Source: a virus (Duplodnaviria; Caudoviricetes). From it: 64,000 nucleotides of DNA. A model generated the notes under the pieces. It saw only the letters and a program-made list of their open reading frames with translations. It was not told the DNA's origin and did no database searches. Location: IMG/VR virus record IMGVR_UViG_3300033163_000002, positions 1,340 to 65,339 of that record; one strand, written 5' to 3'. Position 1 is the stretch's first letter. Every line of letters starts with the position of its first letter. This document shows positions 2,303 through 44,878 of the stretch, piece after piece. The translations under genes were made by a program, and so were the position numbers.

Positions 2303-5300
2303 TACCTACCTATTTTTTGCCAATGACAAACATAATGATCTGATGAAACATCCCCATAAACAGTAATGCTCACCACAAATCGTTTGGTGGAATCCCCCCA
2401 CGGAATGTAATACAATGGGACAGAATCCACCCAATTTCTGCCAACCAATGTGGGATATCCCGCCGTGTCTTTTTCAAACTCTACTTGGCGATTTGCCCCA
2501 ACTGAACTATGGGGAATGATTTCCACAAATATTGTATGGGCTGTTTCTAAATTTGTTGTGGGCCAATTTGTTGTGACTATTTTCAAAAGGGTGGTGGTTC
2601 CTGAATATAAAACCCCCATCTTTAAGCGATACCATTTCCCGCTCCTGACATCAACCAAAACATTTTCTGTAACCGTTCCCAAATCTTCCACCACCATTTC
2701 CGTTGCAGCGGGACCAGTCGATCCGGTAGGCCCCGTTGGCCCCAGATTCCCGGTAGATCCGGTAGGCCCCGTTGGCCCCAGATTCCCGGTAGATCCGGTA
2801 GGTCCCGTTGGCCCCAGATTCCCGGTAGATCCGGTAGATCCAGTAGGCCCTGTGGGTCCCAGATTCCCGGTAGATCCGGTAGATCCGGTAGGCCCTGTGG
2901 GTCCCAGATTCCCAGTAGATCCGGTAGATCCGGTAGGCCCTGTGGGTCCCAGATTCCCGGTGTTCCCTTTTGCCCCGGTCGGACCTGTGGGTCCCAGATT
3001 CCCGGTAGATCCGGTAGGCCCTGTGGGTCCCAGATTCCCAGTAGATCCGGTAGATCCGGTCGGACCTGTTGGTCCCAGATTCCCAGTATTCCCTTTTGCC
3101 CCGGTAGGCCCTGTGGGTCCCAGATTCCCGGTAGATCCGGTCGGACCTGTGGGACCCAGATTCCCGGTAGATCCGGTAGATCCGGTCGGACCTGTTGGTC
3201 CCAGATTCCCAGTATTCCCTTTTGCCCCGGTAGGCCCTGTGGGTCCCAGATTCCCCTGACTCCCAGTGGATCCGGTCGGACCTGTTGGTCCCAGATTCCC
3301 GGTAGATCCGGTCGGCCCTGTGGGTCCATGATCCCCATGATCCCCGGTCGGCCCTGTGGGTCCTTCCATTTTTGTGACCTGCTCAATGGCTTCCTGTACA
3401 TTATCGGCAGTAACGCCGCCAGTAGGCGCAAAAACAACCTCCTGGGCCGATGGAATTACCAATTCGGGGGATCCATCCACCGGATTCATGCGCAGGTATT
3501 TGCCCCATTTCTGCTCGTCTACGGGCGCAAGATGATAAGCGATATCATCCACCTCATGCGCCAACTTCATGGAAGGGGAAACAACCGCAGCACTCCCCCG
3601 GGCGCTTTCCCCATTCACAGATGTCAATTGCCTTTCTTCAAAATCAAAGGAAACATCCGTAGGAATCATTTCTTCCACCACCAACCGGACATTCATCATC
3701 CGATAATCCCTTTCCAGATCCAAAATCCGATATTTCTTAACAACCCCATCCCGCGGAAATTGAAGAATATTCCCGATTGAAATAGTGTCGTCTGGATCTT
3801 CCACTGTGATCATCAAATAATCCTTATAACGTTGGCGATCAGAAAGATATTGCAGGGCGTAGAGTTCAATGAAAGATCTGGCTGTGGCATCCCCTTCCCG
3901 GAACCAAGCCACCGTGACCTCTTCCTCTTCTGAATCCCCGATCAGGAAAGCCCCCAGATCCGTCGGCCGGGGGGAATCGGCGAAATAAAGATCATGCTCT
4001 TCCACGATCTTTCCCTTTTCAATCGATGCCACAAATAATCGATCAAATGTAACATTTCCTGATAATGCATCTTCCCCCGCCAATGAAACTTGCCGAATCC
4101 CAATATTATACATGACCATATTGGCCACAAATGTTTTATGATCAGGATGCAATGCAAAATAGAAATGGAATTCAATTTCGTAATCCCCCTCTTCCACAAT
4201 TCGCAATGCCGGATCCACCCCACTCATGTAGGGTTTCGGGGGGTTGTTGGGGGAAATTGTTTCAATCAAAAATCTGGATCCTTCAGCATAATGGATGGAT
4301 CCATCTGGGCGGGTCACCTGAATCAACATATTTGGAACTCCAAATGCGTTGAAATCCCCCATGATCCGCTCAACAAAGCCATCAAAGGAAACCTGTATGT
4401 AATCAGAATCAGTAATCGGGATGAAATTAAGCGCCTGCTTATAAATCATCTTCATTGGTAGATTGGAATCCCTGAAAAATTGCATGGAAATCCGATTCCG
4501 AAGCGGGGGCCTGCGTTCAATTTCTTCAACAAGCAACCAATTTTCAAAATCATAATTGTCAAAATCATTGAAATCCGCCGATATTTCTCCCAGATTCCGG
4601 TTGTAATGGGTGATGTTCATCCTTTTTACCGGGGGGATCATGGATAATGATCCCCGGCGATGGAATTTGTAGGTAGAAATATCCAATAAATCGGCGGCGG
4701 CTATCCGGGATCCGGGATCCAGTGTTTCCCAATCTACGGGATAATACCATGTATCAATTTCATGAAGATTCTGGATTTCATAAACACCCCGATTCTGCCG
4801 AAGAATCGCCCGATATCCTTTCAATGTCTTTTCCAACACCGCCAAACAGGTGTCATACTCCATTCGGGTGTCCAGTGAAATGATCTGCCCAGATCTGGGA
4901 GAAATCCCGATTGGGGCGGAAGCATGCATGGGATTGAAGGATGACAAAGATTTATCAACCGCAAATCTGCGAGTGTTCACTTTCTTTTCCAACCATGACA
5001 ACTCAGTCGGGGATTGTGATTCTTCCCTGATCCCAACTTTAATCATAAATGGAAGATGGATCCCGATGGGGGCAATAGCATCCCGGATCACCTGCATGAC
5101 AGAAATAATCCCATCAGTATCAAAATTATGCTCTCCCAGATCCCGCAAGCCATCCGTGGCAGATAATTCAATCCGGATCACATAATCCAGAATGGTGCGA
5201 TCCATCATGTCCGGTTGAAGATATCCAACCCATTCTACCTCCGAATCCTTTTCCAATTCAATCCGCCAATCCCGGTATTCACTCTGGAATAATTCATCAG

Positions 5301-34175: not shown

Positions 34176-34340
34176 ATGCAAATCAATCAAAAAATGAAAT
34201 TATTGGAATTTATTTTGATCATTGTGGGGATTATTTCCCTGATTGGAGCGATGCTTGGCCACACCCATCAATTGGCAATCACCTTGCTTTGCATTGGATT
34301 ATTTGTATTAACGAAATCAAAACCATTGAATGATGAATAA
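34176..34340 (+). CDS. Small two-helix membrane protein (54 aa)
   Basis: Hand-translated MQINQKMKLLEFILIIVG..KPLNDE; overlaps the queD start. Confidence 0.5.
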   Translation: MQINQKMKLLEFILIIVGIISLIGAMLGHTHQLAITLLCIGLFVLTKSKPLNDE

Positions 34341-34737
34341 CAGGAATGAAATCATGGTGGTGAAGGAATTTACCTTTGATGCCGCCCATTGCCTACCGGG
34401 ATATCCGGGGGATTGTGCCAATCTTCATGGCCACACTTATCGACTGCAGATTGGAATCATCGGGGGAATCAACCCAGATACCGGGATGGTCATGGATTTC
34501 AAAAAATTGAAAACCATCACAAAACCCATTCTGGACCAAATGGATCATGCTTATCTGAATAATCTGAATGACCCATCATTCCCATCCCACCTGCCGACCG
34601 CCGAAAACATGACAGTCTGGATTGCTGATCAGATCCGGACCAAGCTTTATGAAAATTATCGGGGAGCGGTTGAATTGGGATTGGTTCGCCTATGGGAAAC
34701 ACCCACCAGCTATGCCGAATGGAAAAAGAACTGGTAA
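34330..34737 (+). CDS. queD: 6-carboxytetrahydropterin synthase
   Basis: F.FDAAH.L..Y.G.C.NLHGHTY, MDF..LK, DHAYLN, PTAEN, RLWETPTSYA. Confidence 0.95.
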   Translation: MMNNRNEIMVVKEFTFDAAHCLPGYPGDCANLHGHTYRLQIGIIGGINPDTGMVMDFKKLKTITKPILDQMDHAYLNNLNDPSFPSHLPTAENMTVWIADQIRTKLYENYRGAVELGLVRLWETPTSYAEWKKNW

Positions 34738-34906
34738 ACTCCCCATCCGGCATTGTCGGTATTGTGGGAAAAAATTCCAATTGGATCGGGAAATCATCCT
34801 GTTGATTGAAGATGAATTCATCGAATCCAATGCGGAAATATGTGATGATTGTATGGAAATCCGAATAAATGAAATGAAAGAAAGGAATCAGAATGAAACT
34901 TTATGA
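34712..34906 (+). CDS. Small Zn-finger protein
   Basis: CRYC..CDDC; 64 aa from ATG 34712. Confidence 0.55.
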   Translation: MPNGKRTGKLPIRHCRYCGKKFQLDREIILLIEDEFIESNAEICDDCMEIRINEMKERNQNETL

Positions 34907-35546
34907 AATCTTTGAATCCATTTCCGGGGAATCCGGAATCATTCCGCAGGGCGCCTGGTGCACTTTTATCAGGTTTAAGGGGTGTAATCTTCGCTGCCAT
35001 TATTGCGATACTGCCCACACCCAGATTGGAGGCGGGGAAGATACATCCATGATGGAAATTGCTGATCAGATCAAAACCAAATATGTGACCATCACCGGGG
35101 GGGAACCCCTACTGCAGAAAGATCTGGGAAGATTGATCAATGAATTGAAGAAAGCAGGACATATCATTCAGGTGGAAACAAATGGATCCTTTCCACCCCT
35201 TCGCGGGGCTCCCTGTGGTTGGGTGATGGATCTCAAAGGACCCTCTTCCGGAATGTCCGAACAAATACCCCCTTTGCCGGAATTCATTGAAAGGATTCAG
35301 GGATTGGATGCGGTTGTGAAATTCATTATCCAGAAAGGGAATGATCATGATCTGTTCTTTGCCTGTAATAAAAGCATGATGTTGGCGGATTATGGGTATC
35401 AGGGGAATTTTATATTCAGTCCGATGGATGCGGATCCGGCAACCATTGAATGGATGATGCCCATATTGGATTCGTTTCTTCCCCTGAGTATCAAAAGCAG
35501 ATTGATTATTTCACTCCAGATTCATAAATTGTGCAAAATGCCTTAA
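34893..35546 (+). CDS. queE: 7-carboxy-7-deazaguanine synthase (radical SAM)
   Basis: EIF.SI.GE, FIRF.GCNLRC.YCDT, ITGGEPLLQ, ETNG, QIHK. Confidence 0.93.
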   Translation: MKLYEIFESISGESGIIPQGAWCTFIRFKGCNLRCHYCDTAHTQIGGGEDTSMMEIADQIKTKYVTITGGEPLLQKDLGRLINELKKAGHIIQVETNGSFPPLRGAPCGWVMDLKGPSSGMSEQIPPLPEFIERIQGLDAVVKFIIQKGNDHDLFFACNKSMMLADYGYQGNFIFSPMDADPATIEWMMPILDSFLPLSIKSRLIISLQIHKLCKMP

Positions 35547-35612: not shown

Positions 35613-36230
35613 ATGAAAACCTTAGTAGGAATTGCAAAAGATCTAAACGAAGTGATGGGATTGGATCCCAAAATCCCTGTGGTCGGGATTACCAAAGAAA
35701 AATTGACCGCCCAGATCAAAAAAGCATCGGCAATGATTGATCCGATCAATGATGAATTTACCCCGGAAACCGTCGCTGGATTGAAGAATCTGGGTTTCTG
35801 GAAAGAAGATGATTCAGATCAGGAGGACACCCCGGAAGCATTGGATTTGGAATCCCTGATCCATCAGACCAAAGATTTGAAGGAATTGAAGGCCTTGGTG
35901 AAGGATCGGGAAGAATTCAAACCGCTCCGGAAAAGAATTGCCGGGATGTTTGATCTGAATGATCTGCGGGAAGAAATGCTTTCCCTTTTGGATCCGGATT
36001 ACACTCCCCCTGCTCCGGAAAAGAAGCCCAAGGCTGAAAAGGCTCCGGAAAAGAAAGGACCCAATCAAACAACTCTGATCCGCTCCCTGATCAAATCAAA
36101 AGCCAAAAGGGAAACCATTGTCAAAGAATTGGCGGAAACCTTTGAAAAGACTGAAGGATGGGCCAATTCCCGCCTGAAAGTCTACGAAAATGCCTATGGG
36201 GAAATGGGCGTAAATGATAAAAATTTGTAA
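35613..36230 (+). CDS. Hypothetical protein
   Basis: 205-aa charged helical ORF. Confidence 0.7.
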   Translation: MKTLVGIAKDLNEVMGLDPKIPVVGITKEKLTAQIKKASAMIDPINDEFTPETVAGLKNLGFWKEDDSDQEDTPEALDLESLIHQTKDLKELKALVKDREEFKPLRKRIAGMFDLNDLREEMLSLLDPDYTPPAPEKKPKAEKAPEKKGPNQTTLIRSLIKSKAKRETIVKELAETFEKTEGWANSRLKVYENAYGEMGVNDKNL

Positions 36231-36350
36231 TCATGTTGATCCAATTTTTATCAGATTTTTTCAAACAACCAGAATCAGTTATCCAGCGGGTGCTCCATGA
36301 TCGGGAGCACCTGTTGGGCATTGAATCATTTTTGTGAAAAACAGCCACTG

Positions 36351-36599
36351 ATGAATGTCATTGCGATTGATTTTGATGGGACCGCTTCGGAACACCCCGA
36401 AAAGGTCAATCAATTATACGAAAACAGGAATAATTTCATTGTAATCTACACAGCCAGAAGCCCCGAAATCAGGGAAAAAACTGAAAAAGAATTGCAAATG
36501 CTGGGAATCCGATATCATGCATTGGTTATGGGGAAATTGCGGGCAGATTTCTATGTAGATGACAGAAACCAAGGGGGATTAAAATGGCCAGAATATTAG
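36351..36599 (+). CDS. Minimal HAD-superfamily phosphatase
   Basis: IAIDFDGT, IYTAR, GK..AD.YVDDR; start refined to 36351. Confidence 0.75.
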   Translation: MNVIAIDFDGTASEHPEKVNQLYENRNNFIVIYTARSPEIREKTEKELQMLGIRYHALVMGKLRADFYVDDRNQGGLKWPEY

Positions 36600-37279
36600 C
36601 ATTCAGCGCAGGGATGGATTCCCTGATCATGAAAAAATTATGCGGGTATCCGGATTCGGAATGTCTTTTTGTGGACATGGGGACTGAAGAAAACAAACAG
36701 GAGCGGGCTCTGATTGAGCGGTTCTATCCATCCGTTCAGATCCACCAAATGCCAATTGCTCGCTTTGAATTACCAAACAAAATCATCCCTTTCCGGAATC
36801 ATCTGTTGGCATTTATTGCTGCCCAATTCGGAACTGATATTGGATTTGCATTCACCGCCGGGGATACCACCAGGGACAAGGATTATGTCTTTAAAGCGCA
36901 GATTGAAGGAGCGTTAAATTATTTTTGTGGAATCCCTGAAAAAAGCCCCTTCCCCGGAAGCACTTATTCCATTTTCATGCCATTCAAAGATATGACCAAA
37001 GCGGATATGGTGCGGTTTTTTCTGGAGCGAGGGCATAGTCCATTGATTTTGAAAGATCAATCCATTTCCTGTTATGAAGGGAAAGGGGATTCTTGTGGGG
37101 TTTGTCGATCCTGCCTTCGTAAATTCGTTGCACTCACCCTGAATGGGATTGAATGCAGGGATTGGTTTGCTCAAAATCCTGCTACCCAATTGGGTGCTTT
37201 TTATCAGGAATGTGAAAGAAAAAACAGACAATTGGAATCCAAAGATGTTTTGCGATGCATAGACCTATTACAGGAATAA
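36584..37279 (+). CDS. queC: QueC-like PP-loop ATPase, paralog 1
   Basis: SAGMDS PP-loop variant, IPFRN..L, P...MTKAD, SCY..CGVCRSC..K. Confidence 0.75.
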   Translation: MARILAFSAGMDSLIMKKLCGYPDSECLFVDMGTEENKQERALIERFYPSVQIHQMPIARFELPNKIIPFRNHLLAFIAAQFGTDIGFAFTAGDTTRDKDYVFKAQIEGALNYFCGIPEKSPFPGSTYSIFMPFKDMTKADMVRFFLERGHSPLILKDQSISCYEGKGDSCGVCRSCLRKFVALTLNGIECRDWFAQNPATQLGAFYQECERKNRQLESKDVLRCIDLLQE

Positions 37280-37938
37280 TGGCAACCGGGGGAATTGATT
37301 CCACCGTATTGCTATATGATTTGGTGAAAAAGGGGGGCAAGCCCCAAATTTTAACTATTGATTATGGACATTCAACATTCTGGATTCAATGGGAATTGTT
37401 GAAATTCCATGCGAACCATTTGAAATTAAACCCCCCGATTTCCATCCCCATTGTTTACCACCCATGGCAAACCCGGGAAGGATTATTCACCCGGGGATAT
37501 TCCCCAAATGAAAAGGATCCGCTGGGAGATTGGGATTCCTTGCGGTATGCTGATTTTTTTGTTGAAGGTCGGAATTCAATCATGGTTTTATATGCAATGG
37601 CATATTGCTCTGCGCATGGGATTGATGAATTATTGGCCGGCTATCTATATGGGCGGGAAGAATGGGAAAACCGCAGATCTTATAAATTGATGACCGGGGA
37701 TAATTCCCCGCAATTCGTGGATGCAATAAACATCCTGTCCCAATTGGGATTCTCACACCAAGTTCGTTTCAGAGCTCCATTTTATGAACAAAGGATGGAT
37801 AAAGCGGACATCATTCAAAGAGGAAAAGAATTGGGGGTGGATTTTGGAAAAACATATTCATGTTATTTTGATCCGGAATGTGGAAAATGTGATAATTGTT
37901 TGTTAAGAAAAAAATACCTAAATAATGAAATCAACTGA
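37255..37938 (+). CDS. queC: QueC-like PP-loop ATPase, paralog 2
   Basis: TGGIDS PP-loop variant, [29 protein letters not shown]. Confidence 0.8.
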
Positions 37939-38470
37939 AATCATTACCGCAATGCTAAATGCAATCGGGGAAGATCCTGATCGGGAAGGCTTAATCGACA
38001 CTCCGAATCGGATCATCCGATCATGGGCGGAAATTTATTCTGGATATGAAAAAGATCCTTTCGAGATCTTTCGCACCTTCACATCTGATGGGTATGATCA
38101 GATTGTTTTGTTGCGGGATATTGAATTGTATTCCATGTGTGAACACCATATGTTGCCTTTCTTTGGGAAAGCCCATGTGGCGTATATTCCGGATGGAAAG
38201 GTGTTGGGGATTTCCAAGTTGGCCAGATTGGTTGATATCTATGCCCGCCGGCTCCAGATTCAGGAAAGGATCGGGGATCAGGTAACCGGGGATCTGATGA
38301 AATATCTCCAACCAAAGGGAGCGGCCTGTATTATTGAAGCCACCCATATGTGCATGCGAATGCGGGGCGTTGGGAAGCAAAATTCCATCATGGTGACTTC
38401 CAGCATGCAGGGAGCATTCCGGGATCAGGAATCCACCCGTCAGGAATTGTTGCAATTGATTAAACACTAA
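37925..38470 (+). CDS. folE: GTP cyclohydrolase I
   Basis: [43 protein letters not shown]. Confidence 0.96.
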
Positions 38471-38474
38471 AAAC

Positions 38475-39437
38475 ATGATGAAAGAATCAGAAAACAAAGT
38501 GCAATTGTTTCTGGATTCTGGTGCTTTTTCAGCCCTGACCCAGAAAACTGAAATCGATATTCAGGAGTATATCCAATTCATCAAAGATCATCGGGATGTT
38601 ATCCATGTGTATGCGAATCTGGATGTGATTTGCCAAGCGGATAAAAGGGGGAAAAGATCCACCCAGGCGCTGGAAGAAAGCGCGCGCTTATCTTTCCAGA
38701 ATCAAATGATCATGGAGAAAGCGGGATTGAATCCGATTCCTTGTTTTCATTTGGGGGAAAACCCCAAATGGCTCCGCCGATATCTGGACCGTGGTTATGA
38801 GTATATAGCATTGGGGGGAGCGGTGGGAAGCACCAGTTCAATCCTGATCAAATGGTTTGATAAATTATTTTCTGAATATTTGACCGATGATCAGGGGATG
38901 CCCCGGGTGAAGATTCACGCCTTTGGAATCACAAGCCTTGCTTTAATGATGCGCTATCCATGGTATTCAGTGGATTCTACATCATGGGTGGTTACATCCC
39001 GGATGGGAGCCATATATGTTCCCAGATATAAAGCAGGATCATGGATTTATGATGAAAATTCATGGAAGATCACGGTATCCAGCAAAAGCCCCACACGGAA
39101 AGAAAAAGGGGAACACATCGACACCCTCACTCCGGATGATCGGGGAATCATTCTGAATTATATCCATGACAAGGGGTATGAATTGGGGGCATCAGAATTC
39201 CGCTATGTGGATCAATCCCATAAGCCGGAAAAGGGGGTGGAATCATGGGCGGAAAAGAAACCGGAATCCAAATCAAAGAAACGTCTTTTGGAAATTATCA
39301 CAAAACCCGGGATCTCCAATAAATACCAATTACGGGATGAATTGAATATCATCTATTTTTCTGATCTGGAAAAAAGTATGCCGGCATGGCCATGGCCTTT
39401 TCAAAAAGAAGGGCGTCAGCAATCTTTGAACTTCTAA
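38475..39437 (+). CDS. dpdA: DpdA-like/tRNA-guanine-transglycosylase-like DNA 7-deazaguanine insertion enzyme
   Basis: FLDSGAFS, YANLDVI, IP.FH.GE, YIALGG, KIHAFG, WYSVDSTSW; directly after folE/queC. Confidence 0.75.
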   Translation: MMKESENKVQLFLDSGAFSALTQKTEIDIQEYIQFIKDHRDVIHVYANLDVICQADKRGKRSTQALEESARLSFQNQMIMEKAGLNPIPCFHLGENPKWLRRYLDRGYEYIALGGAVGSTSSILIKWFDKLFSEYLTDDQGMPRVKIHAFGITSLALMMRYPWYSVDSTSWVVTSRMGAIYVPRYKAGSWIYDENSWKITVSSKSPTRKEKGEHIDTLTPDDRGIILNYIHDKGYELGASEFRYVDQSHKPEKGVESWAEKKPESKSKKRLLEIITKPGISNKYQLRDELNIIYFSDLEKSMPAWPWPFQKEGRQQSLNF

Positions 39438-39450
39438 ACAAAAACATATC

Positions 39451-40083
39451 ATGGAAGAACAAAAGAAACTAACCAAATTTCAACAGGACTTTCTTGCCGG
39501 ATATGAGTGGCGGAAAGAAGCGATCGAGCAGATCAACAAATTATTTGAACCAGACAGATATATGTATTATGTCCGATTCCTTCATGAAGGACAATCTGTT
39601 CGGATGGGGGATCATATTGCCCGGAATAATACCATCGGGAATCGGATACTTGACCGGATGGATGACAAAGGGATCGGCTTGGAATTGCTATTGATCGATC
39701 AATCCACTTACAATACCAAGCAATTGATACTCCGGAAATTCACCGACGGAGATGTTTTTCTGAAAAAGCCATCGGATGTTTCCCCGGAGGATTATCTGAA
39801 AAGGATCCGGGATTCCCATTCCTTTTTGTATCTGGATGATGACTTTATTAAATTCGGATCCGGTTCCTATGTTGTGTTGCCCATGAAGGAATTACTGGCA
39901 GATCATCGATGCCAATTTCTGCTTTCCGATTCACCCGGGAATAAAACCCGGATGTCTTTGTATTCCAGTGGGAGAATGATGGTTCCTTCCACATTTTTGA
40001 AAAATCCAACCAACGGGGGGAATACCTTATTTGGATTCACCCCACCCCTTGCCCATGCTTTATCAAATCTTTTCAAAGGATGA
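39451..40083 (+). CDS. Hypothetical protein
   Basis: 210-aa ORF; ATGA overlap with the next gene. Confidence 0.65.
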   Translation: MEEQKKLTKFQQDFLAGYEWRKEAIEQINKLFEPDRYMYYVRFLHEGQSVRMGDHIARNNTIGNRILDRMDDKGIGLELLLIDQSTYNTKQLILRKFTDGDVFLKKPSDVSPEDYLKRIRDSHSFLYLDDDFIKFGSGSYVVLPMKELLADHRCQFLLSDSPGNKTRMSLYSSGRMMVPSTFLKNPTNGGNTLFGFTPPLAHALSNLFKG

Positions 40084-40229
40084 ATATTTATTTGGCCACA
40101 TGGATTCTGGAAAAATCACAAGGGGAAACCCTTACCCGGGTGGGACACAGGAATCGCCTGTTGAGTTATTTCCACACCAAACAAAAACCGGAATCTGAAT
40201 TCCGTAAATACATAAAGACAGGAAAATGA
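40080..40229 (+). CDS. Micro-ORF A (IYLA..RLLSYF family, 49 aa)
   Basis: Hand-translated MNIYLATWILEKSQGETLTRVGHRNRLLSYFHTK..; ATGA overlaps at both ends. Confidence 0.7.
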   Translation: MNIYLATWILEKSQGETLTRVGHRNRLLSYFHTKQKPESEFRKYIKTGK

Positions 40230-40405
40230 TCATATACCTTGCCGCTACTGCTCCGGGAAATGAAACCAAGCAAAAAAGGGGGATGCTGGGAATCCGCCAT
40301 CGCTTATTGAGTTATTTCCTGATTGTCAATCGGACGTTGGATTGTGATAAAGTTTTTAAAGCGATCAAAGATGAAAGTAATCTTCGCGGCAGCCGAACCA
40401 CATAA
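40226..40405 (+). CDS. Micro-ORF B (IYLA..RLLSYF family, 59 aa)
   Basis: MIIYLAATAPGNETKQKRGMLGIRHRLLSYFLIV.. Confidence 0.7.
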   Translation: MIIYLAATAPGNETKQKRGMLGIRHRLLSYFLIVNRTLDCDKVFKAIKDESNLRGSRTT

Positions 40406-40568
40406 TTTAAGGCATGGGGTGATCCGGAATGTTCTGCTTAGCTTTTATGACATCCACATTTCTTCCATCCCATTCCGAACAGAAACATTCAAAATCATAA
40501 AACATGAAAATTCAAAAAGAACAATTGCGGAAAGCATTGGAAATAGTGAAGCCGGGGTTGGCGAATAA
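40371..40568 (+). CDS. Micro-ORF C (VIFA..VLLSFY, 65 aa)
   Basis: MKVIFAAAEPHNLRHGVIRNVLLSFYDIH.. Confidence 0.6.
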   Translation: MKVIFAAAEPHNLRHGVIRNVLLSFYDIHISSIPFRTETFKIIKHENSKRTIAESIGNSEAGVGE

Positions 40569-41520
40569 AGAAATCGCCGAGCAGACCAGTTCCTTTGCTT
40601 TTATTGATGGATTTGTGGTGACTTATAATGATTCCATCAGCATCCGCCACCCCATCGGGGACATCGGATTGAATGGGGCAATCCGAGCGGAAAAACTCTA
40701 CAAACTCCTGACCAAAATCAAAAGGGATGAAATTGAAATCCAGATTGATGAAAAAGAATTGACCATCATGACCGGGAAAGCCGTGGCAAAGTTGGCAATT
40801 GAAGCTGAAATCACAATGCCCATTCTGGACATGAAAAAGATCATGAAAAAGTTTCAGGATCTTCCCGATAATTTTTCCCGGAATCTGCGCTTTGCCATGC
40901 AATCCTGCTCCCGTGATATGAGCAAGCCTGTTCTGACTGCCGTGCATATCCGGGAAAATGGGGCATTTGAGGGTTCGGATGGATTCCGCTTAAGCCGGAT
41001 CCGGGGGGATGGGATGCCTTGTCCAGATTTCCTGCTCCCAGCCGACACGGCCGCCCAAGTGGCAAAATTGAATCCGATCCGGATCCATCTGCAAGAAGCA
41101 TGGGTTCATTTCCAGAATGAGGAAGGATCCATTATCAGCAGTAGGATATTGGAAGATGATGTGTATCCTTTGGTGGATCATATTTTTGATTTCAAAGGGG
41201 AAAAACTTCAATTGCCTAAAGCAATCGCTGACATTCTGGATCGGGCCACAATCTTTTCCAGCGATTCAGATCATTTTCTGGATCAGAAAGTGGATGTTCA
41301 GATTGAAGATAATTCTGTTGTTGTTTCCGGGGAATGTTCCACCGGGAGTTATGCGGAAACCGCCAAAATGCGCTACGAAGGGAATCCCATCAAATTTGCC
41401 ATGACTCCCCATCTTTTCAAAGACATCATGACTGAAACCCATGAATGCATTGTGGGGGAGGGTCGGATTAAATTTACCGGTGAAAATTGGGAATATTTGG
41501 GAATGTTAAAAAATGATTAA
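40504..41520 (+). CDS. DNA polymerase sliding clamp (beta-clamp-like)
   Basis: 338 aa; AMQSCSRD.SKPVLTAVH, EGSDGFRL, ISSRI....YP; clamp loader nearby. Confidence 0.75.
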   Translation: MKIQKEQLRKALEIVKPGLANKEIAEQTSSFAFIDGFVVTYNDSISIRHPIGDIGLNGAIRAEKLYKLLTKIKRDEIEIQIDEKELTIMTGKAVAKLAIEAEITMPILDMKKIMKKFQDLPDNFSRNLRFAMQSCSRDMSKPVLTAVHIRENGAFEGSDGFRLSRIRGDGMPCPDFLLPADTAAQVAKLNPIRIHLQEAWVHFQNEEGSIISSRILEDDVYPLVDHIFDFKGEKLQLPKAIADILDRATIFSSDSDHFLDQKVDVQIEDNSVVVSGECSTGSYAETAKMRYEGNPIKFAMTPHLFKDIMTETHECIVGEGRIKFTGENWEYLGMLKND

Positions 41521-42750
41521 ATGAAAGGATTTTTCACAAAAGACCAAGTTGCTTCAAAATCCCGGCCGGATGGAAAGACATATTCCTGCTTTGCCTGTGG
41601 ATTATCAAAGGATGCCCAGAACCCAAAGATCAAACCCTTTGGTAATTTCAAAAAGCGAATCCTAAACATTGGGGACGCCCCTGATGAATTGGAAGATGAA
41701 AAAGGAATCCCATGGCAGGGGAAGACAGGTCGGATCCTACAAAGGGCTTATCATAAATTTGGGATTGATCTGGTGGACGATTGTTTGAATATCAATGCGG
41801 TTTGCTGCGCATCTACTTATAAAGATTCCGGGAATCCCAAACCCCCCGGAATGCACTCCATTGCCTGCTGCAGAAAAAACATTCTGAAAACCATCCGGGA
41901 ATATCAACCGGATCTGATCATGCTTTTTGGATTATCGGCAGTACAATCTGTGCTTGGCCACACATGGGGGAAGGATATGGATTCCCTTGCCAAATGGCGG
42001 GGGTGGGTGATCCCTGATCAGCAGTTTAAATGCTTGATCGCCCCCACCTTTCATCCATATTATGTTGAAAATAGTGATATTCAGGTGGAGACAATCTGGA
42101 AGCAGGACATCGGGCGGGCATTGAATTCTTTGGAAAGGAAAGAATGGCATCGGGCACCCAAGCCTGTGATTGAAGTCATTGAAGATCTTTCCGTGTTGGG
42201 GGAAATTAAATCCGATCTGATTGCATTTGATTTTGAAACCACGGGATTGAAACCCCATGCCCCGGGTCATCAGATTGTTTGCGCATCGGTGGCCACATCC
42301 ATCAATCATGCTTATGTTTTCATGATCCCCCCGAAAAGAAAGGATCTGCGCCCCTTTTTGGATTTATTGGGGAATCCGCTGATTGGAAAGATGGCCCATA
42401 ATATGAAATTTGAGGAAACTTGGAGCCAAGTCAGATTCCGGCAACCTGTTGCTAATTGGGAATGGGATTCCATGATCGCTGCACATATTCTGGATAACAG
42501 ACCTGGGATCACCAGTCTGAAATTTCAAACATATGTCAATTTTGGAATCCCAGATTATTCCACCGGCGTAGAGGCGCATTTGCGGGCTTCTGGGGATTCC
42601 GGGAATTCTATTAACCAAGTGTTGGATCTGGTTAGATCGCCATCAGGACGAGCGCAATTGCTTGAGTATTGCGCATTGGATTCAATATACGAATATCGAT
42701 TGGCGATGAAGCAGATTGATTTGATTGATTATGATTTTTTACCCTTTTAA
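41521..42750 (+). CDS. DNA polymerase N-terminal half: UDG-like domain + 3'-5' exonuclease (SPO1-like)
   Basis: CFAC, IGDAP..ED..G.P..G.TG, PTFHP; AFDFETTGL, AHNMKFE, DSMIAAHILD, YCALD. Confidence 0.85.
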   Translation: MKGFFTKDQVASKSRPDGKTYSCFACGLSKDAQNPKIKPFGNFKKRILNIGDAPDELEDEKGIPWQGKTGRILQRAYHKFGIDLVDDCLNINAVCCASTYKDSGNPKPPGMHSIACCRKNILKTIREYQPDLIMLFGLSAVQSVLGHTWGKDMDSLAKWRGWVIPDQQFKCLIAPTFHPYYVENSDIQVETIWKQDIGRALNSLERKEWHRAPKPVIEVIEDLSVLGEIKSDLIAFDFETTGLKPHAPGHQIVCASVATSINHAYVFMIPPKRKDLRPFLDLLGNPLIGKMAHNMKFEETWSQVRFRQPVANWEWDSMIAAHILDNRPGITSLKFQTYVNFGIPDYSTGVEAHLRASGDSGNSINQVLDLVRSPSGRAQLLEYCALDSIYEYRLAMKQIDLIDYDFLPF

Positions 42751-42752
42751 TC

Positions 42753-43472
42753 ATGGAAAAACAAATTCAATGGATGGGATTCAATTGGATCCCGCAGGAA
42801 AGATGGGGAACCGCCTACAAAGACAACACCAACACATGGATGGATCCAAAATGTGTAGAAGTGGAATCGGATCAGAAATCCCCCCTACATTTGCGCACAA
42901 AATACAACCCCCAATTCATTCATGAATGGGATCAATTGCGCCCGATTGCCATCGGATTGGTTTCCTGTGTGCATCATTTTTCCTATGGTCGGTTTATTAT
43001 TGAAGCGAAATTGCCGGATGTTCCTTTCGCCTGGCCGGCCTTTTGGTTATATTCATGGAAAGGATGGCCACCGGAAATTGATTTCTTTGAAGGATATGCC
43101 AACAGCCGGGGATCTTATTTTCAACCAACATTTCCAAATCTTTGCCAATTTTGGAAAATGGAAACCAATCTACACCTGCCATTGGCCGGGGAACCCTATG
43201 CGTTGGGGGCGAAAAGATTGGGGGGGATTGGGTGCCGGGATCCACGGGATCATTTCATAACTTACGAAGGGCGATGGCATCCAGATGATATTTCCATCTG
43301 GGTTGATGGAAAATTGGCCCATCGATGGGATATTCCCAGACAGACCCTGAATCAATTCAAACCCCCGATGAATCTACTGATCAACACTGGGGTTCAATCC
43401 GGGAAACATATCCCGCCGGATCAGGCGGATAGTGATTTTGTGATCAAATCTTTTAAATATATTCCGTTATGA
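42753..43472 (+). CDS. Glycoside hydrolase family 16 protein
   Basis: FSYGRF.IEAKLP, WPAFWL, EIDFFE catalytic motif, H..Y...W....I...VDG. Confidence 0.8.
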   Translation: MEKQIQWMGFNWIPQERWGTAYKDNTNTWMDPKCVEVESDQKSPLHLRTKYNPQFIHEWDQLRPIAIGLVSCVHHFSYGRFIIEAKLPDVPFAWPAFWLYSWKGWPPEIDFFEGYANSRGSYFQPTFPNLCQFWKMETNLHLPLAGEPYALGAKRLGGIGCRDPRDHFITYEGRWHPDDISIWVDGKLAHRWDIPRQTLNQFKPPMNLLINTGVQSGKHIPPDQADSDFVIKSFKYIPL

Positions 43473-44878
43473 TAATTTCCCCGCAAACAAAAGAAGCCTA
43501 CCGATTATTCCATGATGGGACGCTTGCCTTGGCGCGGGCTGAGCAACAAGGGATCCGGGTAAATATGGAATATTGTGAAAAGAAAAGTGATCAATTATCC
43601 CACAAGATCCAACGGCTGGAAGAACAATTCTACCGGACAGAATTCTTCAAAGAATGGAATAAAACAACAAGATCCCGAATAAATATTCATTCCAATGTCC
43701 AACTGGGTAATTTTCTTTATAAGGTGAAGAAATTCACCCCCGCAAACACCACGGCCACCGGGAAAGGGGGGACAGACGAAGAATCCCTGTCCCAATTGGG
43801 AATATCGGAATTAAATTTATTATTGGAAATCCGGAAATTGAAAAAAAGCCGTGACACTTATCTGGGATCATTCATCAGGGAAGCGGTCGAGGGATATCTC
43901 CATCCATCTTTCAACCTACATTTGGTTAAGACATTTAGGAGTTCATCGGATCGGCCCAATTTCCAAAACATTCCGAAAAGGGATGAAGATACCATGCGAT
44001 TGATCCGAAAAGCATTATACCCCAGACCCGGGCATCAATTGATGGAAGTGGATTATTCTGGATTGGAAGTCCGCATAGCCGCTGCATATCACAAAGATCC
44101 AACCATGCTTAAATATATTCTGGATCCTTCCACGGATATGCATCGGGATATGGCCGAACAAATTTTTCTGATGGATGATTTTGATAAATCGGATCCAACC
44201 CACAAAACCCTCCGATCCGCTGCCAAAAATGGATTTGTCTTTCCCCAATTCTACGGGGATTACTTTAAAAATTGCGCGATCAATCTGGCTTGTCGATGGG
44301 GTAAACTCCCGGAGGGCCGATGGAAAGCAGGACAGGGGATCGATTTCAATGGTGGAAAATTGGCGGATCACTTCATCGGGAAAGGGATCCGATCAATTGA
44401 TAAATTTACAGATCATTTGCGGGAAATTGAATCGGATTTCTGGAATAATCGATTCCCGGTTTATCAGGAATGGAAAGAAAAGTGGTGGAAGGAATATCAG
44501 AAAAAAGGATATGTCGACATGTATACCGGATTCCGCTGCAGCGGGGAAATGGGAAGGAATGATGCGATCAATTATCCAGTACAGGGGGCGGCCTTTCATT
44601 GCCTGCTCTGGTCTTTCATTCGGTTGGATGCGATCATGCAGCGAAAAGGATGGAAAACCCGATTGATCGGACAGATCCATGATGCAATTGTTTTGGATGT
44701 TCATCCGGACGAGCTGCATGAAGTGGGTTTGAATATCCGCTTGGTTACCACCGGGGATCTTCCCCGCAATTGGCCATGGATCAATGTGCCATTAGAAATT
44801 GATGCAGATCTGGGTGGTGTGGATGAAAGCTGGGCGGATCTGAAACCATATCAATTGCCTTATAATGTCCATAATTGA
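43469..44878 (+). CDS. Family A DNA polymerase, catalytic half
   Basis: RSSS.RPN.QNIP; motif A DYSGLE.R; motif B R..AK..F..FYG; motif C QIHDA. Confidence 0.93.
   Translation: MIISPQTKEAYRLFHDGTLALARAEQQGIRVNMEYCEKKSDQLSHKIQRLEEQFYRTEFFKEWNKTTRSRINIHSNVQLGNFLYKVKKFTPANTTATGKGGTDEESLSQLGISELNLLLEIRKLKKSRDTYLGSFIREAVEGYLHPSFNLHLVKTFRSSSDRPNFQNIPKRDEDTMRLIRKALYPRPGHQLMEVDYSGLEVRIAAAYHKDPTMLKYILDPSTDMHRDMAEQIFLMDDFDKSDPTHKTLRSAAKNGFVFPQFYGDYFKNCAINLACRWGKLPEGRWKAGQGIDFNGGKLADHFIGKGIRSIDKFTDHLREIESDFWNNRFPVYQEWKEKWWKEYQKKGYVDMYTGFRCSGEMGRNDAINYPVQGAAFHCLLWSFIRLDAIMQRKGWKTRLIGQIHDAIVLDVHPDELHEVGLNIRLVTTGDLPRNWPWINVPLEIDADLGGVDESWADLKPYQLPYNVHN

Follow-up and report, generated by a model that had tools for sequence, protein, structure and literature searches.

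A phage DpdA core lacking the first quarter of its barrel, and three adjacent micro-proteins that may complete it in trans

The DpdA enzyme of a phage decides which guanines of the phage DNA become 7-deazaguanines, and hence the restriction and CRISPR systems that the phage can evade. To our knowledge, the DpdAs described so far are single chains that act at one or two target motifs. A different arrangement is found in a virus (Duplodnaviria; Caudoviricetes) represented by IMG/VR record IMGVR_UViG_3300033163_000002, a metagenomic contig of 65,339 nt estimated to be 92% complete. Positions 1,340 to 65,339 of this record were analysed as one strand of 64,000 nt, hereafter called the window. Its dpdA-like gene lacks the segment predicted to form the first two strands and helices of the catalytic barrel, while three small open reading frames (ORFs) downstream of it, m1, m2 and m3, encode homologues of that segment. 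These micro-proteins probably serve as interchangeable N-terminal modules (N-modules) of a two-piece DNA 7-deazaguanine transglycosylase, which they would complete in trans.

The DpdAs of cultured Queuovirinae-type phages (PaMx25, NP1, iggy) share about 40% identity over the core and the LDSGAFS motif with the window protein. The surroundings of the gene are also alike, with FolE, QueC and QueD upstream, followed by a clamp and a DNA polymerase. However, in the Queuovirinae enzymes the N-terminus is an integral part of a single chain, whereas the window core is split from this part, and no N-module micro-ORFs were seen when the PaMx25 and Erebus loci were scanned with a hidden Markov model (HMM). 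The small ORFs that do adjoin dpdA in Erebus and PaMx25 had been considered as candidate N-modules and were ruled out by the same scan. Bacterial DpdA (Salmonella Montevideo, 7ui4) and the tRNA-guanine transglycosylases (TGTs) have the TIM-barrel transglycosylase fold in common with the clade of the window protein, whose invariant Asp and His columns would correspond to their active-site residues (PMC10164549). They, too, are single polypeptides, unlike the proposed window enzyme, and bacterial DpdA needs the DpdB ATPase. A zinc site, CxCxxC...H, is reportedly conserved across bacterial DpdA and TGTs (PMC10164549), but this motif is absent from the window core, which contains two cysteines only (C53 and C90); nor is there an invariant Cys column among 38 cores. 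The C-terminal ~90 residues of the core clade instead form a conserved region, N.YQLRDE.NIIYF..LE...P.WPW (alignment A5). No description of a split DpdA was found in the literature searched.

The four genes of the putative two-piece enzyme, with the evidence for each, are:

38475-39437, + strand: DpdA/TGT-family transglycosylase core, 320 aa (phrog_887, homology, conserved columns)
40080-40229, + strand: m1, N-module-like micro-protein, 49 aa (HMM, hhalign, dN/dS)
40226-40405, + strand: m2, N-module-like micro-protein, 59 aa (HMM, hhalign, dN/dS)
40371-40568, + strand: m3, N-module-like micro-protein, 65 aa (codon frame test, hhalign)

The core ORF belongs to the DpdA/TGT superfamily by its fold, its acidic and histidine columns and its gene context. 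It begins MMKESENKVQLFLDSGAFS, only 11 residues ahead of the catalytic D-S-G motif, and its match to phrog_887 (queuine tRNA-ribosyltransferase; E 6.9e-47) covers the profile only from position 50. The stop codon of the preceding folE gene lies at 38470, 4 nt before the core ATG, and thus leaves no space upstream for an N-terminal extension. In the alignments, D14, D50, H92, H148, S165 and D167 of the window core fall in invariant or near-invariant Asp, His or Ser columns. The active-site set of SmDpdA consists of Asp95, Asp130, His181 and Asp256, for which the core columns D14, D50, H92/H148 and D167 are candidate counterparts. The window core therefore comprises strands β3-β8, the conserved Asp/His columns and the C-terminal subdomain, without β1-α1-β2-α2. 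A complete barrel in one polypeptide is not encoded by this ORF, as these ~50 residues are missing. The initial annotation had correctly placed the start of the ORF almost at FLDSGAFS and had inferred that an N-terminal barrel segment is absent; it had reckoned with one beta-alpha-beta unit, however, where two beta-alpha units are lacking.

That same annotation had described, for related phage proteins, an additional N-terminal segment in intact members of the family, and such a segment does exist. In PaMx25 and Erebus, the annotated DpdA starts about 49 codons ahead of the point from which the window protein can be aligned. Lengths are bimodally distributed among the 120 closest database proteins: the forms of ~300-319 aa (truncated) begin just before V.LFLDSGAFS, whereas those of ~342-373 aa (fused) begin with MKIYLAG...RL.SY[FY].... 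About half of the closest metagenomic homologues carry the latter sequence ahead of LFLDSGAFS. A search of 1.84 billion cluster representatives (50% identity) returned 7,523 matches, and among the best 150 of these, 74 are truncated and 46 fused. A fused relative, P0123, aligns to PaMx25 DpdA from residue 4. Truncated forms start at the same place at which the fused forms carry a conserved methionine (P0003-P0272). A Met occurs within positions -16 to -4 of the motif in 69 of 102 fused proteins, as against 28% expected, and its frequency peaks sharply at -10 to -8. This conserved residue suggests either an internal start, yielding a core-only product, or frequent fusion and fission.

The structural view of the missing segment comes from an AlphaFold2 (AF2) model of P0123, built on a 142-sequence alignment, and not from a model of the window protein itself. 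The mean confidence of the model (predicted local distance difference test, pLDDT) is 91.5. Its first 50 residues are arranged as strand 4-6, helix 17-25, strand 27-29 and helix 32-49, followed by the motif strand (54-56), five further barrel strands and, towards the C-terminus, a beta-rich part. The top match is bacterial DpdA 7ui4, with a Foldseek probability of 1.0 and a VIA-align Z of 13.2 over 227 aligned residues, and comparison with TGTs gives Z ~12.9. AF2, Foldseek and VIA-align together assign P0123 a TGT-like (beta/alpha)8 TIM-barrel fold, in whose model the segment missing from the window core would correspond to strands 1-2 and helices 1-2. An earlier AF2 model, of P0003 with 36 sequences, was poor in its N-terminal half, and Foldseek returned only weak TGT matches for it. 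In sequence searches of PDB chains, neither the single protein nor a profile found anything relevant.

The three micro-ORFs are present downstream of the core at 40080, 40226 and 40371, with the coordinates and sequences given in the initial annotation, which had also proposed comparing their profiles with the N-termini of the family. An HMM was trained on the N-termini of 53 fused proteins only. In its first round it detected m2 (E 3.4e-5) and m1 (E 8.9e-5), m3 not being significant (E 3.5); after iteration, the values were E 1.8e-12 for m1, 3.6e-12 for m2 and 1e-3 for m3. Profile-profile comparison with hhalign relates each family to the fused DpdA N-terminus, with probabilities of 89.6% (E 1.9e-6) for the m1-type, 94% (E 1.3e-7) for the m2-type and 79% (E 1.5e-5) for the m3-type, and all three align to its first ~37 residues. 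This resemblance goes well beyond chance. Scanning all six frames of the window with the HMM uncovered no module besides m1, m2 and m3, and searches of Pfam and PHROGs returned nothing credible for them.

Each micro-protein has its own family and signature. The m1-type, with 38 orthologues (alignment A6), follows the pattern M.IYLATW..E..QG..LT+....RLLSY.......Y.KTG+, in which M1, W8, L27 and S29 are invariant. The m2-type (15-27 orthologues) reads M.IYLAATAPGNE......RLLSY..I....D.VF..I. and is recognised by its APGNE signature. The m3-type (at least 14 members; alignment A7) reads M..I.AA..P....LLS[YF]YD....IPFR.ETF, with LLSYYD...IPFR as signature and D27, P34, F35 and R36 invariant. Met1 is invariant across all three. 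The median ratio of non-synonymous to synonymous substitution rates (dN/dS) is 0.36 for m1 and 0.32 for m2, figures that are rough because dS is near saturation. For m3, a codon frame test was applied to its non-overlapped part (40407-40502) between the window and L003, a related locus whose core is 91% identical: the m3 frame shows 13 synonymous and 3 non-synonymous codon changes, compared with 3:14 and 2:15 in the other two frames, which also contain stops. Judged by these sequence comparisons, m1, m2 and m3 are real coding genes under purifying selection, and they represent three old, conserved orthologous families rather than recent ad hoc local copies.

The distribution of modules was followed in 83 non-redundant related loci on viral contigs. 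At least one module is present in 79 of the 83, and many loci carry 3-8 (range 1-8), directly upstream and/or downstream of the core. All significant matches lie on the strand of the core (160/160 with the first HMM, 254/254 with the iterated one). Every truncated core with adequate flanks is accompanied by one or more standalone modules (37/37), and the well-flanked loci without a standalone module contain fused cores only. Some truncated cores have a single module, which may be m1 (L075), m3 (L082) or another type. Conversely, the m1-type is found naturally fused to the core in P0273-P0275 (E 1e-15 to 1e-17) and P0230. The split architecture is widespread, in uncultured phages only; a tblastn search with m1 against 50,697 phage records gave no match. 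Tandem modules in one frame also occur: at L036:4038-4265, an m2-type module runs straight into an m1-type one, and in P0127, two modules in series precede the core.

The locus L003 allows a close comparison. It has a fused module and, in addition, the same 210-aa ORF, m1, m2 and m3 as the window, from which ~160 nt coding for the fused module are missing. A clean deletion relative to L003 could not be defined, since the 3' ends of the FolE genes are too divergent. From 39451 to ~40390, the window is nearly identical to L003:5988 to ~6927 (2/633 nt differences in the 210-aa ORF, 1/150 in m1 and 2/180 in m2), while the core and the clamp gene flanking this block are 12-17% different. A near-identical block between diverged flanks implies a recent exchange, so that the module cassette appears to move between phages independently of the core.

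The arrangement is probably explained by a two-piece enzyme. The 320-aa core would contribute strands β3-β8, the catalytic aspartates and the C-terminal subdomain, and m1, m2 or m3 would each contribute β1-α1-β2-α2 in trans to complete the (beta/alpha)8 barrel. In the solved bacterial DpdA, the β1/α1 and β2/α2 loops sit next to the active site, on the face that binds DNA, and they have been linked to DNA binding and motif recognition (PMC10164549). In SmDpdA, Ins1 of the β1/α1 loop contributes to the surface that binds double-stranded DNA, and the general acid Asp95 stands just before Ins3 (residues 97-109), an insertion of the β3/α3 loop (PMC10164549). Given this position of the loops, different modules would give different holoenzymes, here three, which might differ in the DNA-sequence context or possibly in the base they prefer. 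Phage DpdAs are restricted to certain motifs, GA in iggy and GA plus GGC in CAjan (PMC10484667), so alternative modules could broaden or vary the guanines modified, and several holoenzymes together would replace a larger share of them. The supply in trans already suggested in the initial annotation is thus supported in part: the evidence from sequence is strong as regards homology, coding status, co-occurrence (37/37) and m1-type fusions, and the single-module loci agree with it; the binding of modules to the core, the activity of the assembly and its altered specificity are inferred.

Several observations weigh against this interpretation. Standalone modules stand beside 24 of 27 fused cores with adequate flanks, as in L003, and are hence more than patches for a deletion. 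In such loci, complementation in trans requires that the core alone be translated from an internal start. Fused modules have an invariant Ala-Gly after β1, and the Gly position is occupied by Thr in m1 and by Ala in m2 and m3, a replacement that could equally mean altered or lost function. Finally, confidence in the model is lowest over the N-module (pLDDT 57-69), of which residues 1-19 fall outside the structural alignments, so its equivalence to β1 and β2 is read from strand order and counts.

The presence of modules beside fused cores and the replacement of the Gly make a regulatory or competitive role a live alternative. The micro-proteins would then be regulators or inhibitors at the open β1-β2 site of the core, or competitors of a fused N-module, and would time or restrain DpdA. 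That they persist as standalone families of their own, encoded nearly always on the downstream side of the core, fits such a role as well. However, the 37 truncated cores have just standalone modules with which to complete a barrel, either m1 or m3 can be the sole module beside such a core, and the m1-type forms the cis N-terminus of single-chain enzymes, which is not expected of an inhibitor. A regulatory function is thus considered unlikely, and complementation in trans is preferred.

It is also rather improbable that the truncated core suffices alone and that the micro-proteins, although derived from the N-module, now serve a function unrelated to it. The frequency of truncated forms in the search of cluster representatives and the low confidence of the N-module in the model would be in keeping with this possibility. 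Against it, the core is without two of the eight barrel strands when compared with DpdA and TGT, modules adjoin the core on the same strand in nearly every locus, and not one well-flanked truncated core is without a module. A further possibility, very improbable, is that the micro-ORFs are not translated at all and are either remnants or silent cassettes that become joined to the 5' end of dpdA by recombination. The locus is indeed recombinogenic, as the block shared with L003 shows, and the same module types are fused or free depending on the phage. Against this, the start Met is invariant and the ORFs are intact across 14-38 loci per family, dN/dS is about 0.3, the bias towards synonymous changes is seen in the m3 frame only, and start/stop overlaps of the ATGA kind are typical of operons whose genes are translated.

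The remaining genes of the locus, all on the strand of the core, are the following:

34330-34737, + strand: QueD (Pfam PTPS, 2.5e-38)
34893-35546, + strand: QueE-like radical SAM gene (Pfam Radical_SAM, 9.2e-14)
36584-37279, + strand: QueC-like paralogue (Pfam QueC, 1.3e-12)
37255-37938, + strand: QueC (Pfam QueC, 2.8e-26)
37925-38470, + strand: FolE (Pfam GTP_cyclohydroI, 3.7e-73)
39451-40083, + strand: 210-aa ORF between the core and m1, conserved, with no assigned function
40504-41520, + strand: sliding-clamp-like gene closing the module array (weak Pfam DNA_pol3_beta match)

Pfam matches for the four linked preQ0-pathway functions (FolE, QueD, QueE and QueC) thus all lie directly upstream of the core. 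Homologues of the 210-aa ORF occupy the equivalent position in about 15 related loci; nothing credible was found for it in Pfam or PHROGs, and an Atlas search gave no usable lead. The array proper starts 643 nt downstream of the core stop and is tightly packed. The ATG of m1 overlaps the stop of the 210-aa ORF and the ATG of m2 that of m1 (ATGA in both cases), the ATG of m3 (40371) lies 35 nt inside m2, and m3, which ends at 40568, shares its last 65 nt with the clamp gene. The module accounts for only the first ~46 residues of m3, whose tail is the start of the clamp gene read out of frame. An m3-type last module regularly overlaps the clamp gene in this way, by ~60 nt and in a different frame (window 40504-40568; L031, L042, L048 and others), and the Gly/Asn/Ser/Lys-rich m3-type tails are alike across phages simply because the N-terminus of the clamp is conserved. 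The gene at the position of the clamp is annotated as a processivity factor or beta subunit in PaMx25 and Erebus.

Beyond the clamp-like gene, a family-A polymerase gene follows on the + strand. It is split, with a GH16 gene between its halves (41521-44878), as it is in L003:8058-11400; at L004:8314-10981, both halves are present without GH16. A scan of 36000-42000 for sigma-70 promoters and terminators gave hits at chance level, which is uninformative if the phage uses other promoter types.

In relatives of the window, the modules are also sites of simple repeats. A census of 839 kb of related loci, in which the module zones make up 5.9% of the sequence, places 38 of 41 (AG)n tracts of at least five units in these zones, along with 17 of 33 poly-G and 6 of 9 poly-C tracts of at least seven. 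Among the classifiable tracts in modules, 18 are in frame and 11 frame-breaking. The AG tracts ((AG)5-9) encode an R-E-R-E stretch in the β1/α1 loop. Their codons are AGA in 86% and GAG in 91% of cases, as against 31% and 34% in core genes, a bias which suggests that the repeat itself is maintained. From contig to contig, the lengths of orthologous tracts change in 2-nt steps, and even L056, L058, L091 and L057, which are near-identical contigs, have (GA)n, poly-C and poly-G tracts of different lengths. Examples are found at L023:209-222 and 374-383, L058:4593-4601 (poly-C), 4716-4724 (poly-G) and 4890-4906 ((GA)n), and L101:3854-4004. For the poly-C tract at L058:4593, two lengths coexist in each of two groundwater runs at a depth ratio of about 3:1, as read from Logan contigs of mixed strains. 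These contigs are fragmented by the strain mixture and break off at the (GA)n tract, so that within-sample switching of AG tracts is not readable from them. In m1-m3 of the window itself, there is no (AG)n, poly-G or poly-C tract.

The relatives thus have simple repeats concentrated in coding sequence, where changes of length shift the frame, and from their sequences the related loci look like a contingency locus that switches modules on and off, including the one fused to the core. Phasevarions and the switching of Type I HsdS combine one catalytic unit with alternative specificity parts, as is proposed here. Phase-variable restriction-modification (Type I HsdS and methyltransferases controlled by simple sequence repeats) resembles what is suggested for the relatives of the window locus in that alternative parts are toggled by simple repeats. 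However, those enzymes are methyltransferases of bacteria, in which target recognition has domains of its own, whereas here one quarter of the catalytic barrel itself, in a base-exchange enzyme of a phage, would be the alternative part. It is possible, though doubtful, that the whole clade runs a combinatorial DNA hypermodification, with one core and alternative modules that set the motif or base specificity, switchable in many members by slipped-strand mispairing at the (AG)n, poly-G or poly-C tracts, which would generate populations of mixed patterns; the window phage would then represent the case of three constitutively open modules.

If complementation in trans is correct, the locus would represent a natural enzyme split within its TIM barrel and equipped with several alternative quarter-barrel subunits. 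It would thereby offer a natural test case for fragment complementation and the modular evolution of (beta/alpha)8 barrels, and possibly a source of programmable base-exchange enzymes. The repeat tracts of the relatives, if they act as proposed, would extend phase variation, mainly known from bacterial contingency loci, to an anti-restriction system of phages. For these phages, the alternative modules would mean a new viral route to diversified DNA-modification specificity.

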